A stretch of 64,000 nt of DNA from an uncultured Spirochaetia bacterium. GTDB taxonomy: Bacteria; Spirochaetota; Brachyspiria; Brachyspirales; Brachyspiraceae. The stretch spans positions 4,623 to 68,622 of the forward strand of contig CAMRBQ010000007.1 in the NCBI GenBank assembly GCA_947040495.1. Direction: 5' to 3'. The position numbers and the translations under genes are program-made. This document shows, one piece after another, positions 4,715 through 54,461 of this stretch. Position 1 is the first letter of the stretch; each line of letters opens with the position of its first letter. The notes under the pieces were generated by a model. That model had not been told where the DNA came from, ran no database searches, and saw only the letters and a program-made list of their open reading frames with translations.

Positions 4715-5941
4715 ATGGGGCTATATATGAGCGAAAATATCAAATGGAAAGGCAATACTATGCCAAAAGATAATAGTAGTTATTCATGGGAAGACCATCT
4801 TTCTTTAGAAGAAGTGAATAAAGCAAAAGAATTTCATGCAAGTTTTGAAGAATATAAAGAAACACCACTTGTCAATTTACAATCTCTAGCAGATAAAATT
4901 GGGATAGGTAGCTTATATCTTAAAGATGAATCATATCGCTTTGGACTGAATGCCTTTAAGGTATTGGGTGGTTCATTTGCTATGGGGAAATATATGGCAA
5001 AGTGTTTAAACAAAGATATATCTGATTTACCATATTCAAAAATAATATCACCTGAAATTAAAAAACAATTAGGTGACATAGTGTTTTATACAGCTACAGA
5101 TGGTAATCATGGTCGTGGTGTCGCATGGACTGCTAATAGACTTAATCAAAAATCTGTTGTATATATGCCAAAAGGCTCTTCAGAATATCGATTAAAAAAC
5201 ATACAAAAAGAAGGAGCAACAGCCTCTATTACAGATATGAATTATGATGATGCTGTAAGACTTGCTGCAAAAGATGCTCAAGAAAATAATGGGCTTATAG
5301 TACAAGATACAGCTTGGGAAGGCTATGAAGAGATACCACTTTGGATTATGCAAGGCTATGGTACTATGGCTTTGGAGGCGATTAAACAATTAAATGATTA
5401 TAATGTCGATAGTCCAACGCATGTATTTGTTCAGGCGGGTGTTGGTTCTCTTGCAGGTGGAGTACAAGGGGTACTACATTCATTCTATAAAGATAAATGC
5501 CCTATAACTACAATTGTCGAATCAGATTTGGCTGACTGTCTTTATAAATCTGCGTTGGCAAATGATGGTAAGCCTAGATTTGTTGGCGGCGATATGCAAA
5601 CTATCATGGCAGGTCTTGCATGCGGCGAGCCAAATACAATTAGCTGGGAAGTATTAAAAAAATATTCAAAGATGTTTGTATCATGTCCTGATTGGGTTGC
5701 TGCTGAGGGAATGCGTATACTTGCAAAGCCTACTCACGATGATAAAAAAGTTGTATCGGGTGAATCTGGTGCTGTAACTACAGGCTTAATTGTAGAGATT
5801 ATGATAAATGATGAATATAAAGCACTTAGAGAGGAATTAAAATTAGATAAAAACTCTAAAGTTTTGGTATTTAGTACCGAAGGTGATACTGACCCAGATA
5901 TGTACAAAAAAATTGTAGATGATGGGTTTTGTAAAAAATAG
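4715..5941 (+). CDS. dpaL: Diaminopropionate ammonia-lyase (PLP-dependent; YgeX/DpaL family)
   Basis: LKDESYRFGLNAFKVLGG carries the PLP lysine motif; also TATDGNHGRGVAW. Length 408 aa. An alternative start is the ATG at 4727. Confidence 0.8.
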   Translation: MGLYMSENIKWKGNTMPKDNSSYSWEDHLSLEEVNKAKEFHASFEEYKETPLVNLQSLADKIGIGSLYLKDESYRFGLNAFKVLGGSFAMGKYMAKCLNKDISDLPYSKIISPEIKKQLGDIVFYTATDGNHGRGVAWTANRLNQKSVVYMPKGSSEYRLKNIQKEGATASITDMNYDDAVRLAAKDAQENNGLIVQDTAWEGYEEIPLWIMQGYGTMALEAIKQLNDYNVDSPTHVFVQAGVGSLAGGVQGVLHSFYKDKCPITTIVESDLADCLYKSALANDGKPRFVGGDMQTIMAGLACGEPNTISWEVLKKYSKMFVSCPDWVAAEGMRILAKPTHDDKKVVSGESGAVTTGLIVEIMINDEYKALREELKLDKNSKVLVFSTEGDTDPDMYKKIVDDGFCKK

Positions 5942-5996
5942 ACTATTATTAAATTAATTAGATTAGTTCAGTTAATTTTCAAGGGGGAAAGTAAAC

Positions 5997-7307
5997 ATGT
6001 CAGAGCAACCGTATAAGTATTCCTTTTTGGGCAAGCCACCATTAGGGGAAGTATTATTATTAGGGCTTCAGCATATGATAGCAATGTTTATAGGTAATAT
6101 TACACCTATTCTTATTGTAGCACCACTTGCTGGAATAACAGATCCTGCAATGGTTACAGCCTTGGTACAAGGGGCAATGATTTCATCTGTTGTTGCGACA
6201 TTGGTACAGCTTTACCCAATTTCACTTGGAGCCAAGTTTCGTATAGGGTCAAGACTACCTGTTATTATGGGTACAAGTTTTGGCTTTATGTCTGTCAATA
6301 TGTCTATAGCGTCGCTATATGGTGTCCCAGGGATATTCGGAGCTCAAATAGTCGCTGGTCTTATAACCATACCAATAGGATTTTTGCTACCACGTATACG
6401 TAAATATTTTCCGCCGATTGTAACAGGTACGGTTATACTTTCAATAGGTCTATCACTTTTCCCTATTGCTATGAGAGATATTGCAGGTGGAGCGGGTGCA
6501 GCCGATTTTGGTTCTCTACAAAACATTGGATTAGGATTTTTTGTTCTTGTTCTTGTTATTTTCTTTTCTCAATATACAAAAGGGCTCTTGAAACTAGCAG
6601 CTATTTTTGCATCTGTTGTTATAGGTTATATTATTGCTATACCACTTGGTAAAATTAATTTAACCAGTGTAGGGGATGCTGCGTGGTTTTCACTCCCGGG
6701 TATATTAGAATTGGGTGTTACTTTTCATCTAGATTCAATAATTGCTATGACTGTTATGTATTTTGTAACAGCTTTACAGCTTATAGGTGATTTATCTGCA
6801 ACAACAATGGGTGGAATGGATAGAGAGGTTACAACAGAAGAACTATCAGGTGGGATTATTGGAAATGGGCTTAGTGCTGTGTTGTCTGCATTGTTTGGCG
6901 GGCTTCCTACAGCTACATTTAGTCAAAACGTAGGTATAGTAACATTAACAAAGGTAACTAGTCGTATAGTTATACTTGCTGCTATATGTGCTGTGGGGTT
7001 GGCAGGCTTTGTACCAAAAATGGCGGCTATTATTACATCAATACCAAGACCTGTTTTGGGTGGGGCTACAATAACTGTTTTTTCTATGATTTCATTGACA
7101 GGTATTAGAATCATAGCAAAAGAAGATTTATCATTAAATAGAAATGTTGTAGTTATTGGATTATCTCTAGCTATTGGTGGGGCTATACCTCAGGTTCCCG
7201 GTATACTTGCAAATGTAGACCCTAGCTTAAAAATTGTATTAGGCTCTAGTGTTGTTGTTTCATCGATGTTGGCAACTATTTTGAATCTAATTTTACCAAA
7301 AAAATAG
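5997..7307 (+). CDS. NCS2-family nucleobase:cation symporter (xanthine/uracil permease type)
   Basis: Polytopic 436-aa membrane protein with NCS2-like blocks GLQHMIAMF and ATFSQNVGIV. Confidence 0.8.
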   Translation: MSEQPYKYSFLGKPPLGEVLLLGLQHMIAMFIGNITPILIVAPLAGITDPAMVTALVQGAMISSVVATLVQLYPISLGAKFRIGSRLPVIMGTSFGFMSVNMSIASLYGVPGIFGAQIVAGLITIPIGFLLPRIRKYFPPIVTGTVILSIGLSLFPIAMRDIAGGAGAADFGSLQNIGLGFFVLVLVIFFSQYTKGLLKLAAIFASVVIGYIIAIPLGKINLTSVGDAAWFSLPGILELGVTFHLDSIIAMTVMYFVTALQLIGDLSATTMGGMDREVTTEELSGGIIGNGLSAVLSALFGGLPTATFSQNVGIVTLTKVTSRIVILAAICAVGLAGFVPKMAAIITSIPRPVLGGATITVFSMISLTGIRIIAKEDLSLNRNVVVIGLSLAIGGAIPQVPGILANVDPSLKIVLGSSVVVSSMLATILNLILPKK

Positions 7308-25847: not shown

Positions 25848-26561
25848 TCATTTCAATTTGTCTATTTCTTTTTTTGGTATATTTGTAATTTTTATTATTT
25901 CTTCTATATTATAATTCATAGATAACATTTCTTTTGCTATTTCAATATTTCTTTTTTCGATACCAACTTTTTCACCTTCTTTTTTTCCATCAAGTTTATA
26001 ATCTTGCTTCTCTTTATCCAAAATATCTTTGACATCATCAACAGCCTGATAGGTTATATCTTGTTCGAAAAAATCTATATATTTTTCTACAAAAAAACTA
26101 TAGTAAATTGATTCTTCACTTTCTAAAGATGAGCGTGAAATTATTATATGGTCAATTAAATTTAGCCCCAAATATTTCGACCTATGATAAAATTTATTCG
26201 TAAAGTCTATATCATATTGTGAAGGCTCAGGATTTTTTCTACTTGTATGATTATGGGCAATAACAATATTTTTTGATTTATGTTTTACGGCTGTATCAAA
26301 AATATCTATGATAGGAAGCTTCACCATATTTTCAGTGCCCAAAGCCACAAGATAAATACAAACAACATATCCATCGCTGTCCATGCCCATTATCCAAAAA
26401 TGCTCTTTACTATATAAATCTTTATTCTCAATTTTTAACACATGGATAAACGCTCTATAATAATCTTCTACGCTGCTTATTTTTATAGATTTTTTTTTAA
26501 TATCTTTGACAGTTCTAATCAACATTTTTTTATTATCTTCAATTTTTTTCTTGCTTGCCAT
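25848..26561 (-). CDS. RadC-like JAB/MPN-domain protein, paralog 1 (C-terminal HTH-like tail)
   Basis: EHFW...AHNHTSRKNPEPSQYD fits the RadC-type E / HxH / SxxD signature. About two thirds identical to the 31078..31791 product by eye. Confidence 0.75.
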   Translation of the reverse strand: MASKKKIEDNKKMLIRTVKDIKKKSIKISSVEDYYRAFIHVLKIENKDLYSKEHFWIMGMDSDGYVVCIYLVALGTENMVKLPIIDIFDTAVKHKSKNIVIAHNHTSRKNPEPSQYDIDFTNKFYHRSKYLGLNLIDHIIISRSSLESEESIYYSFFVEKYIDFFEQDITYQAVDDVKDILDKEKQDYKLDGKKEGEKVGIEKRNIEIAKEMLSMNYNIEEIIKITNIPKKEIDKLK

Positions 26562-26691
26562 GAGATATACCTTTGTAATTATTTATTAGTTTTTTTATGA
26601 TTTTTTATTATATACAATATTTTATTATTTGCAGTACTTTTCCTAGTAGCACATACAAAATCAATATAATAAAATATATATTTAAATGTTA

Positions 26692-26730
26692 GAATGCAAT
26701 TATAATGTGCAACTTAAGCCTACGCAGTAG
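26692..26730 (-). repeat. Right arm of the inverted repeat of cassette 1
   Basis: The reverse complement reads ctactgcgtaggcttaagttgcacattataattgcattc. Confidence 0.75.
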
Positions 26731-26736
26731 TGTATT

Positions 26737-26758
26737 AAAATGTGCAACTAGGAAAACC
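26737..26758 (-). repeat. Additional copy of the repeat core next to cassette 1
   Basis: The reverse complement reads ggttttcctagttgcacattttaat. Further partial cores lie at 25782-25795 (-), 25822-25838 (+) and 26642-26659 (+). Confidence 0.6.
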
Positions 26759-30808: not shown

Positions 30809-30827
30809 GAAAATGCATTTAATTAAT

Positions 30828-30901
30828 GTGCCTGTAGCTCAGCTGGATAGAGCGTTAGATTGCGGTTCTAAAGGCCGGAGGTTCGAATCCTCTCAGGCAC
30901 A
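30828..30901 (+). tRNA. tRNA-Arg, anticodon read as GCG
   Basis: Hand-folded cloverleaf: acceptor GTGCCTG/CAGGCAC, D stem GCTC/GAGC, anticodon stem TTAGA/TCTAA with loop TTGCGGT, and T arm GGAGG-TTCGAAT-CCTCT. No encoded CCA. Confidence 0.8.
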
Positions 30902-30910
30902 ATTGCTACT

Positions 30911-30997
30911 GGAGAGATGTCCGAGTCTGGTTTAAGGAGCACGATTGGAAGTCGTGTGTGCGGCAACGTACCGTGGGTTCGAATCCCACTTTCTCCG
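30911..30997 (+). tRNA. tRNA-Ser, anticodon GGA (class II, long variable arm)
   Basis: Acceptor GGAGAGA/TTTCTCC, anticodon stem CACGA/TCGTG with loop TTGGAAG, a 17-nt variable arm and T arm GTGGG-TTCGAAT-CCCAC. Confidence 0.85.
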
Positions 30998-31006
30998 ATT
31001 CTTTCC

Positions 31007-31055
31007 CTAAGTTGCACATTGTAATATTCATATTAACATACAAATATATTTGACT
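31007..31055 (+). repeat. Conserved non-coding flank (repeat core plus 21-nt block) downstream of RadC-like paralog 2
   Basis: ctaagttgcacattgtaatattcatattaacatacaaatatatttgact differs from 53701-53749 at about 6 of 50 aligned columns (hand alignment). Confidence 0.75.
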
Positions 31056-31077: not shown

Positions 31078-31791
31078 TTATATTTTTAAATTTTTAATTT
31101 CTTTTTCAGTTAACCCAGTTGCTTTAATAATAGTTTCTATATCTAAATTAAGATTTAATAATTTTTTTGCTATAGATATTTTCTCTTCATGTTTCCCTTC
31201 AACTTTGCCATCTTTTTTTCCGTCAAGTTTATAATCTTGTTTTTCTTTATCCAAAATATCTTTAACATCATCTACTAATTTATAACTTAAATCCTGCTTA
31301 AAAAAATCCATTAATCCTGTTACCAAAAAACTATAATAAATTGATTCTCTACTTTCTAAAGATAAAGCTGAAAGTATTATATGGTCGAGTACATTAATAT
31401 TTAAATATTGCGAAACATGAGAAAGCTTGTTTGTGAAATCAATATCAAATTGTGAAGGCTCAGGGTTTTTTCTCGTTGTATGATTATGAGCCACTACTAT
31501 ATTTGTTGCTTTCGATTGAACTGCTATGCCAAAAACATCGGTCATGGGAACTTTCACCATATTCTCGCTACCCAAAGCTACTAAATATAGACAAACAGAA
31601 TAGCTGTCATTATCAATACCCATTATCCAAAAATGTTCTTTACTATATAAAGATTTAGGTTCTCTTTTGAAAAAATCAAGAAAAATTTTATAGTAATCTT
31701 CTACGGTATTAATTTTACTAGCTTTTAATTTGAAACCCTTAATGGTTTGAACTTCCATTTTTTTGACTTCAGTTTTTTTCTTGCTCACCAT
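31078..31791 (-). CDS. RadC-like JAB/MPN-domain protein, paralog 2
   Basis: EHFW...AHNHTTRKNPEPSQFD signature. The C-terminal tail IAKKLLNLNLDIETIIKATGLTEKEIKNLK is HTH-like. Confidence 0.75.
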   Translation of the reverse strand: MVSKKKTEVKKMEVQTIKGFKLKASKINTVEDYYKIFLDFFKREPKSLYSKEHFWIMGIDNDSYSVCLYLVALGSENMVKVPMTDVFGIAVQSKATNIVVAHNHTTRKNPEPSQFDIDFTNKLSHVSQYLNINVLDHIILSALSLESRESIYYSFLVTGLMDFFKQDLSYKLVDDVKDILDKEKQDYKLDGKKDGKVEGKHEEKISIAKKLLNLNLDIETIIKATGLTEKEIKNLKI

Positions 31792-31860
31792 AAAATATAC
31801 CTTTATAATTATTTATTAGTTTTTATTATTATATATAATAAAATATATATTTAAATGCTA

Positions 31861-31886
31861 GAATGCAATTATAATGTGCAACTAGG
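31861..31886 (-). repeat. Inverted copy of the repeat core upstream of RadC-like paralog 2
   Basis: The reverse complement reads cctagttgcacattataattgcattc. It is nearly identical to the inner part of 26692-26730. Confidence 0.75.
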
Positions 31887-31975
31887 AAAAAACTTGATTT
31901 TTAATCGGTTAGTTGTATTATCATATTTATATTAGTATTTACTATAAAAAAATAATATTTAAGGCGGTTGTTATT

Positions 31976-53780: not shown

Positions 53781-54461
53781 TCATTTTAATTTGTTTATTT
53801 CTTTTTGACTTAGACCTGTATGTTTAGAAATTATATTAATATCAATGTTATCAGCTAACATACTTTTTACTATTTCAATATTTCTTTTTTTAATCATATC
53901 ATAAGCATAATCTTTTTTTTCTTCTTCCAACATCGGTTTTAATTCTTCATAAGGCGTATAAGAAATATCTTCATGTATACTTTTCATAACATGCATTTCT
54001 TTATAGCTATAATAAATTGCTGTTTCGCTTGTTAGGCTTTTTGTAGAAATAATAATATGGTCGAGCAATGTTAGCCCCACAATACTTGCCATATGATAAA
54101 CTTTATTTGTGAATAGAACATCTTCATCTGATGGAATAATCTCACTTACATCTGGATGATTATGAGCGAGTATAACCCTTTGGCAACTATGATTAATAGC
54201 AGTTTTAAATAAATCATGTGCTGTTAAATTTACAAAATTGCCACCACCCAAAGCGACTATATATGCACAAACTGTGTAGCCTTTATCATTCACACCGATA
54301 AGCCAAGCATGTTCTTTTTGCTCTAATTCTTTATCTTCACTTTTAAGTAGATTTACAAAGATACGATAATAGTTTTCTATCTTTTCTATTCTAACTCTTT
54401 CTTTTTTTATTTTTTTGATAGTATTAATTATCATCATATCTTCTACTTTTTTCTTTACCAT
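53781..54461 (-). CDS. RadC-like JAB/MPN-domain protein, paralog 3 (divergent)
   Basis: EHAW...AHNHPDVSEIIPSDED signature. The C-terminal tail IVKSMLADNIDINIISKHTGLSQKEINKLK resembles that of paralogs 1 and 2. Confidence 0.7.
   Translation of the reverse strand: MVKKKVEDMMIINTIKKIKKERVRIEKIENYYRIFVNLLKSEDKELEQKEHAWLIGVNDKGYTVCAYIVALGGGNFVNLTAHDLFKTAINHSCQRVILAHNHPDVSEIIPSDEDVLFTNKVYHMASIVGLTLLDHIIISTKSLTSETAIYYSYKEMHVMKSIHEDISYTPYEELKPMLEEEKKDYAYDMIKKRNIEIVKSMLADNIDINIISKHTGLSQKEINKLK

Follow-up and report, generated by a model that had tools for sequence, protein, structure and literature searches.

What is encoded at positions 31078 to 31791 (minus strand) of a 64,000-nucleotide stretch of an uncultured Spirochaetia bacterium (Brachyspiraceae; GenBank assembly GCA_947040495.1, contig CAMRBQ010000007.1, positions 4,623 to 68,622; hereafter the window, meaning the whole stretch that was analysed), and what might such a protein do? 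The original prediction, made from the DNA letters and translated open reading frames (ORFs), described a RadC-type JAB core set between an unknown N-terminal region and a repeat-bearing, helix-turn-helix (HTH)-like tail. By profile searches and structural modelling, the gene is assigned to an uncharacterised but widespread family in which a short, putative zinc-hydrolase core of the RadC-type JAB class is joined to the C-terminal module of the Rpn (YhgA-like) nucleases. The JAB core and the Rpn-like, repeat-bearing tail were thus upheld, but the unknown N-terminus was not. The gene and its parts are as follows.

31078..31791, minus strand: whole gene of the RadC-JAB/Rpn-tail fusion P0001, 237 codons plus stop (ORF translation, Pfam and NCBIfam matches)
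31711..31791, minus strand: Lys-rich N-terminal extension, residues 1 to ~27, without family match
31312..31710, minus strand: RadC-type JAB (MPN) domain, residues ~28-160 (PF04002, Foldseek match to 2qlc, predicted local distance difference test [pLDDT] ~90)
31636..31638, minus strand: codon of E52 (in KEHFW), the JAMM catalytic Glu (2qlc alignment; at least 90% conserved in the family alignment)
31444..31488, minus strand: codons of the metal-binding motif H102-N-H104...P-S113-x-x-D116 (2qlc alignment, family and paralog alignments)
31153..31275, minus strand: first, long helix of the tail (helix 1), residues 173-213 (DSSP assignment in the AlphaFold model; equivalent to the dimerising first helix of RpnA-S, PMC10400941)
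31183..31230, minus strand: four tetrads KLDG KKDG KVEG KHEE, residues 188-203, within helix 1 (paralog alignment)
31084..31140, minus strand: tail helices 2 and 3, residues 218-236, the HTH-like end of the Rpn C-terminal module (7TH0_A profile match, Foldseek, TIGR01784)

The RadC model PF04002 matched residues 31-145 of the target protein (E 5.1e-22; 78.5 bits, cut-off 22.1), and the sole match in a PDB sequence search was the RadC protein of Chlorobium tepidum, 2qlc. The AlphaFold model, built from 27 family members (mean pLDDT 83), was confident over the core at residues ~20 to 160 (pLDDT ~90), while residues 1-20 had a pLDDT of 45-53. Foldseek superimposed this core on 2qlc with an E-value of 5e-9, a TM-score of 0.90 (normalised to the target) and a root mean square deviation (rmsd) of 1.9 Å; BubCD, BRCC36, and CSN5 were among the weaker matches, RadC being the best by far. 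In the alignment with 2qlc, the KEH, HNH, and PS..D motifs of the target each pair with the same motifs of the RadC protein, and the five JAMM-type residues E52, H102, H104, S113, and D116 are all intact; one extra target residue sits between HNH and PS relative to 2qlc and the usual HNHPSG. The E, HNH, S, and D of this signature are retained in all three window paralogs, as had been predicted. Residue 31 corresponds to position 5 of the PF04002 profile, and residue 23 of 2qlc pairs with query residue 50. Most of the supposedly unknown N-terminus of ~55 amino acids belongs to the JAB fold, as its first helix and strand, and only ~27 Lys-rich residues, modelled with low confidence, precede the domain. 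The full-length models of canonical RadC/YicR, TIGR00608 and NF000642, scored 65.7 bits (cut-off 133.85) and 68 bits (cut-off 180), respectively, with only the C-terminal half of the profile matched; according to the NCBIfam profile comparison, the helix-hairpin-helix (HhH) N-terminus of canonical RadC is absent from the fusions.

The tail module spans residues ~170-237. In Rpn proteins, the C-terminal module is a three-helix bundle that dimerises via its long first helix, and this helix is built of hypervariable tetrads, each with one hydrophobic residue and three charged residues or Gly (PMC10400941). Positions 203-272 of the 273 in the Rpn family model TIGR01784 matched target residues 164-234 (E 1.8e-9), and the score of 37.8 bits fell short of the whole-protein cut-off of 52.1 because the nuclease part is missing; no Pfam match to a PD-(D/E)XK nuclease domain (PF04754/PF12784) was found in the target. 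The same end of TIGR01784 was matched by 13 of 13 paralog tails (best E 2e-11), and a profile made from the last 75 residues of these 13 paralogs identified the crystal structure of E. coli RpnA-S, 7TH0, as its top match in the PDB (E 1e-5). In the full AlphaFold model, the tail forms a long helix at residues 173-213 and short helices at 218-225 and 229-236. In a model of the tail only, pLDDT was ~84 over the last 35 residues and low before them, and Foldseek again ranked 7TH0 first (probability 0.99, TM-score 0.84, rmsd 0.8 Å over 41 columns), the E-value of 0.56 being weak because the domain is tiny. The next matches were HTH domains of serine recombinases, TrpR-like proteins, and an IS21 transposase. 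In addition, PF27070 (HTH_Rpn_C) is precomputed in Pfam on a homologue 99% identical to the target; no mention of this model was found in the literature searched. The originally proposed resemblance to Rpn/YhgA-like tails is confirmed by three independent kinds of test. We concluded that the tail is homologous to RpnS, with a long helix of variable tetrads followed by an HTH-like helix pair.

Tetrads at helix 1 number from 0 to ~8 per copy in the alignment of 19 complete paralogs, a variation seen between paralogs of one genome. At the DNA level, a search for tandem repeats in the tetrad region of the target gave a weak period-24 signal at low threshold and nothing at score 30; therefore, the tetrads are visible at the protein level and do not reflect fresh DNA slippage. 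In the known systems, the number of tetrads decides the pairing of RpnS (the short form, an antitoxin) with RpnL (the long form, a toxic nuclease), and the tail serves as an oligomerisation and antitoxin module whose link to HTH motifs is one of HHpred relatedness only (PMC10400941), so we treat DNA binding by the tail as a hypothesis. No transposase or recombinase domain was recognised in the protein: the ISNCY and phrog_3300 "transposase" labels match the Rpn-type tail only, and Pfam gives only RadC. The model of Wmk, the Wolbachia male-killing protein, weakly matched P0001 tail residues 166-232 (E 0.003) and 6 of the 13 tails (best 1e-4), and a "transposase" of Wolbachia phage WO is 52% identical to the tail over 50 residues; both likenesses probably stem from tails of the Rpn or HTH type that the proteins have in common.

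In the profile searches, no characterised family accounted for the full length of the target, the full-length RadC and Rpn models all scoring under their cut-offs. To place the fusion among its relatives, 1.84 billion cluster representatives were scanned with HMMER, yielding 206 matches at E<=1e-30, and the target and the best hits were aligned (n=150). The tail was aligned in 139 of the 150 proteins, so the fusion is common to at least 139 clusters at 50% identity. All five catalytic residues are kept in 101 of the 150, and at least two Gly residues at 4-residue spacing occur in 80, in runs up to 15 long. At ~30% identity over residues 27-235, the fusion was found in Snodgrassella, Gilliamella and other Orbaceae, Zophobihabitans, a Neisseria species, Bacteroidota, and a metagenome-assembled genome (MAG) of an uncultured Spirochaetia; the carriers thus include bee-gut Orbaceae and Neisseriaceae. 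A linker motif preceding the tail is common to family members, which suggests a single origin of the fusion. Named members are labelled "JAB domain-containing protein", "DNA repair protein RadC", or "hypothetical". The claim that this is not a described system needs dividing: no paper on a RadC-Rpn-tail fusion was found in the literature searched, including searches for RadC with Rpn/YhgA and with Brachyspira, but the architecture is widespread and already in databases under generic names. The domain pair is thus already captured, and the protein itself is not a new kind.

The genome carrying the window (G000, genus g1; 2.55 Mb in 165 contigs, 30% G+C) gave 28 matches to the fusion family; 19 are complete genes and 8 are fragments located at contig ends, which corresponds to ~24 copies. 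The family had been called triplicated, and three copies do lie in the window, but it is far larger genome-wide. The two other window copies are listed here.

25848..26561, minus strand: window paralog 1, 237 amino acids, 62% identical to the target, with a tail of another type
53781..54461, minus strand: window paralog 3, 226 amino acids, ~39% identical to the target, without tetrads

Comparison of the paralogs across the genome revealed a few types of tail, which are swapped modularly between copies; the breakpoints lie at the tetrad region or close to it. Over 171 paralog pairs, core identity and identity of the last 34 residues were uncorrelated (Spearman 0.11). Nucleotide identity between the target and the C34 copy rises from ~50% across the core to 98% in the tail, and that between the target and the C1 copy drops from 80-96% across the core to 62-69% in the tail; window paralog 1 shows the reverse of the latter pattern when compared with C1. 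The missing correlation and the sharp nucleotide breakpoints together led us to conclude that tails have been exchanged as modules. Purifying selection acts on the JAB cores, the catalytically degenerate ones included. In ten close pairs, core dN/dS was 0.08-0.18, and in the dead pair C64 and C23_10422, where the Glu and both His are replaced, it was 0.16. All five catalytic residues are intact in ~12 of the 19 complete paralogs; about one-third of copies, in this genome and family-wide, have degenerate active sites, yet are conserved as proteins.

The distribution of the fusion was compared with that of true Rpn genes over 30 relatives, using a whole-protein fusion profile and the Rpn model. 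Nine of the 10 genomes searched from the sister genus g3 have 4-31 full-length Rpn genes and no fusion, and the tails of these Rpn proteins are very like the fusion tails. In contrast, G000 and the g2 genomes G001 and G003 have 0-1 Rpn genes, with ~24, up to 13, and 4 fusion-profile matches, respectively. The single Rpn gene of G000 (C148:51-776, minus strand) contains an in-frame TAA and is probably a pseudogene. The fusion family appears to stand in for the expanded Rpn family of the sister genus; this complementary distribution is a lead rather than a statistic because the genomes are few and related. Weak "spanning" fusion-like matches in g3 were rejected as a canonical 227-amino-acid RadC followed by a separate XRE-type HTH gene. 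At one such locus (L061:315-734 and 738-1421), canonical radC (227 amino acids, HhH and JAB) is followed 3 nt later by a gene for a 139-amino-acid XRE-type protein, the HTH of which aligns weakly with the fusion tail. In another genome, a fusion (L063:5001-5741) and a true PD-(D/E)XK Rpn gene (5745-6578) lie on the same strand 4 nt apart, and the tail of this Rpn is closely similar to that of the adjoining fusion but differs in tetrad number. A RadC-DinG helicase gene is located upstream of the L063 pair in divergent orientation, and a helicase-fusion pair also occurs on contig C37 of G000. There, an 850-amino-acid protein with N-terminal RadC-JAB and a DinG/Rad3-type helicase (L067:940-3492, minus strand), the only such helicase in the genome, is encoded divergently to a fusion copy (L067:3674-4375) at a distance of 181 nt.

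Our favoured reading, to which we assign an even chance of being right, is that the family consists of Rpn-like conflict proteins in which a RadC-JAB domain would replace the PD-(D/E)XK nuclease, the tail would pair and pick partners, and the core would act on nucleic acid. The tail would be the module of self-association and partner specificity, as in RpnL/RpnS, and the number of tetrads (hence the helix length) and the tail sequence type would decide which copies pair. The JAB core would be an effector on nucleic acid and a case of non-homologous displacement of the PD-(D/E)XK nuclease. Catalytically dead copies may pair with or inhibit active ones, and the role of the family would lie in genetic conflict, be it selfish persistence or a defence of the abortive-infection or toxin-like kind, and not in housekeeping repair. 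We infer the pairing, the substrate, and the role from the Rpn study (PMC10400941) and from the domain-displacement argument (PMC3239186, PMC5512222).

The closest known counterparts are the Rpn (YhgA-like) recombination-promoting nucleases, represented by E. coli RpnA-E and PDB entry 7TH0, with their RpnL/RpnS toxin-antitoxin defence (PMC10400941, PMC5350276). The fusions share with them the homologous C-terminal module of a long helix with hypervariable tetrads and two short helices, the organisation in single-gene units with many copies per genome and a patchy distribution, and, in one genome, a tandem arrangement with a true Rpn gene. They differ in having a RadC-type JAB where Rpn has an N-terminal PD-(D/E)XK nuclease, in showing no evident internal start for a short form, and in being flanked by inverted repeats at some copies, which rpn genes are not. 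RadC/YicR proteins (PF04002, 2qlc) have the same JAB fold and E/HxH/S..D motif. YeeS, YkfG, and YfjY of E. coli are short prophage RadC-like proteins that, like the fusion, lack the HhH N-terminus. In contrast to RadC/YicR and the prophage versions, the fusion adds an Rpn-type tail and is multicopy, with mosaic tails and degenerate active sites in about one-third of copies. In the RadC-DinG/Rad3 helicase fusions, as in our family, a RadC JAB sits where close relatives hold a nuclease (PMC3239186); the partner module is a helicase there and a pairing tail here, and the two kinds of fusion lie next to each other at L067 and L063. Displacement of the exonuclease in DinG helicases has been used to argue that RadC is likely a nucleic-acid enzyme (PMC3239186, PMC5512222), and the same logic applies to the proposed displacement of PD-(D/E)XK in the present fusion. 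The latter is in line with the RadC nuclease hypothesis of Iyer/Aravind and suggests that RadC can substitute for a DNA-cutting toxin domain.

Several points weigh against this reading. Activity, toxicity, or a phage phenotype is known for no fusion member, and the chemistry of RadC could be that of a peptidase rather than a nuclease. The three window paralogs matched 0 families among the known anti-phage defence models of PADLOC-DB 2.0, and the complementary distribution with Rpn rests on few related, non-independent genomes. In this genome, fusion copies sit singly among housekeeping genes and not in defence islands. Across the 19 copies, the sequences gave no sign that a short antitoxin form is made from an internal start: Met161 occurs in 13 copies, with a Shine-Dalgarno-like motif ahead of it (AGGA, 3 nt upstream) in the target copy only, whereas AAGG or GGAG lies 7-10 nt upstream of roughly half of the annotated starts. 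A promoter-like site inside the gene (31376-31405) was discounted as a by-product of the codons for a conserved DHII motif. In favour of the conflict reading, fusion neighbours in other phyla are of conflict type and include a P4-like integrase, KAP NTPase, putAbiC, HNH, PemK, and PIN. In a Bacteroidota MAG, a 47-amino-acid ORF (L060:1997-2140) contains a second version of the final two tail helices of the adjacent fusion and is separated from that fusion by a PemK-toxin gene pair; it looks like a tail remnant after insertion or duplication. Four elements of the displaced-effector argument, namely the Rpn-type reading itself, the lineage-wide Rpn replacement, the tail swapping, and the conserved dead copies, appear to be undescribed in the literature searched.

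The first rival explanation concerns the surroundings of the gene, which lies between tRNA-Arg/tRNA-Ser (30827-30998) and a divergently transcribed pyridoxal phosphate (PLP)-enzyme gene. The relevant features are the following.

31873..31883, minus strand: upstream copy of the core AGTTGCACATT (minus-strand reading), 92 nt before the ATG
31828..31855, minus strand: promoter-like site TTTAAA-16 nt-TATAAT in the conserved upstream repeat (consensus scan, 10/12 matches)
31010..31020, plus strand: downstream inverted copy of the core AGTTGCACATT, 58 nt past the stop codon and 11 nt from tRNA-Ser
30910-30998: tRNA-Ser(gga)

According to this explanation, which we consider improbable, the gene would be a self-mobilising mini-cassette of ~0.9 kb whose HTH-like tail binds the inverted AGTTGCACATT ends and whose JAB core cuts or processes DNA, with solo repeats as non-autonomous relics. 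The genome contains 34 occurrences of the core AGTTGCACATT, versus ~2 expected by chance, as estimated from base composition, and the 51-nt upstream repeat of the target (31833-31883) is 98% identical to that of paralog 1 (26664-26714). The "repeat-flanked" description fits the target, where the inverted cores are clear, as at about six other copies, but a clear pair is found at only ~7 of the 19 complete copies, leaving ~12 without one. Many copies are located at contig ends, as is typical of repeats, and the tail model resembles the HTH domains of serine recombinases and of an IS21 transposase. A gene 99% identical to the target, which here stands beside tRNA-Ser, sits after purA in another metagenome sample, and a third sample has an 83% allele at the same purA-argS site; these alleles fit cassette mobility and recombinational allele exchange alike.

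Against such mobility, ~20 AGTTGCACATT cores are far from any RadC-tail gene, adjoining unrelated ORFs or none, one of them upstream of a 444-amino-acid housekeeping-type gene, and no common gene class was found beside the solo cores. Since the repeat also holds the promoter-like site, for which we infer a promoter role from its match to consensus, it may be a general regulatory or intergenic element. The breakpoints in the tails point to homologous recombination or gene conversion, which is able to move alleles between loci without transposition. No JAB protein is known to act as a transposase. The rpn genes have been shown not to be autonomous elements (PMC10400941), which further counts against self-mobilisation. 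The fusion copies can also be compared with mobile insertion cassettes (MICs), small non-autonomous cassettes bounded by inverted repeats: both have a single passenger gene between inverted repeats (~0.9 kb in all, at some fusion copies) and, from sample to sample, alleles that differ at a single site. Unlike MICs, the fusion has no known transposase in trans, most of its copies have degenerate repeats or none, repeats are also found at a distance from any copy, and exchange among its copies is explained by homologous recombination. The dispersed intergenic repeat extends ~50 nt around AGTTGCACATT, with window examples at 26734-26756, 31008-31025, and 31868-31890, and many of its copies are preceded by ACTACTGCGTAGGCTTA.

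We regard as still less probable the proposal that the protein is a JAB peptidase, similar to Cap3 or other prokaryotic deconjugating enzymes, with the Rpn-type tail docking onto tail-bearing partners that are cleaved or regulated. Characterised JAB domains are isopeptidases (PMC5512222), the E/HxH/S..D motif is complete in the target, and BubCD, BRCC36, and CSN5 appear among the weaker structural matches. However, RadC itself is by far the best fold match, the RadC clade has been reported to lack a groove for a ubiquitin-like tail (PMC5512222), and no ubiquitin-like, E1, or E2 genes adjoin the copies examined.

To a counter-defence or decoy function we give a similarly small chance. Here, tail-bearing proteins would bind, by matching tails, to the Rpn-type nucleases of the host or of invaders and neutralise these, while the JAB core would be secondary or would degrade the partner. 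RpnL is inhibited when an RpnS-type tail pairs with it (PMC10400941), RadC domains are found in anti-restriction settings, for instance in ArdC fusions and in the polyvalent proteins of conjugative elements (PMC3239186, PMC5512222), and the conservation of the catalytically dead third of copies would suit a decoy, as would the tail-only phage families phrog_5416 and phrog_12274. On the other hand, the one Rpn gene of this genome is interrupted by a stop codon and therefore leaves little to neutralise, and most copies have retained, under purifying selection, an active site that is intact. In the phage and plasmid collections searched, matches were to the RadC core or the tail alone, and the fusion was in no record. 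The two small phage families, of 66 positions (phrog_5416) and 138 positions (phrog_12274), show similarity to the Rpn-type tail alone (E 9e-7 and 4e-9, respectively); such free-standing tail-like proteins could be decoys for Rpn-type systems.

That the copies are ordinary housekeeping RadC paralogs or HTH transcription regulators with no conflict role, as the RadC and JAB annotations of homologues and the position of copies among housekeeping genes might imply, is very improbable and was already disfavoured, given that the genome has a separate RadC on C101 (the best match to the full Pfam domain, without an Rpn-type tail), that the fusions have no HhH N-terminus and score far short of the cut-offs of the full-length RadC models, and that a patchily distributed family of ~24 copies with mosaic tails, varying tetrads, and lost catalytic residues would be out of keeping with such a role.

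The conflict-protein reading, with its Rpn-type tail and displaced nuclease, can be taken further, to a proposal that we advance with considerable reserve and think rather unlikely in full. The Rpn tail would be a portable pairing module, "addressable" by tetrad number and sequence type, that can be coupled to unrelated effectors; the ~24 RadC-JAB proteins of this genome would form a network in which conserved dead copies serve, in trans, as antitoxin-like counterparts of active copies whose tails match, new specificities would arise via tail swapping at the repeats, and the RadC JAB would be a toxic nucleic-acid hydrolase. The function of RadC has been open since the 1980s, and this proposal, if true, would provide the first functional assignment for its JAB domain. 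The nuclease hypothesis for RadC has stood on one domain displacement, that in the DinG helicases, and the fusion would be a second and independent one, in which RadC-JAB occupies the exact place of the PD-(D/E)XK endonuclease of Rpn toxins before the same repeat-bearing tail. The fusion family may thus offer a simple, testable system for the chemistry of RadC, for how widely the "tail as specificity code" of Rpn holds, and for module swapping in multigene conflict families.

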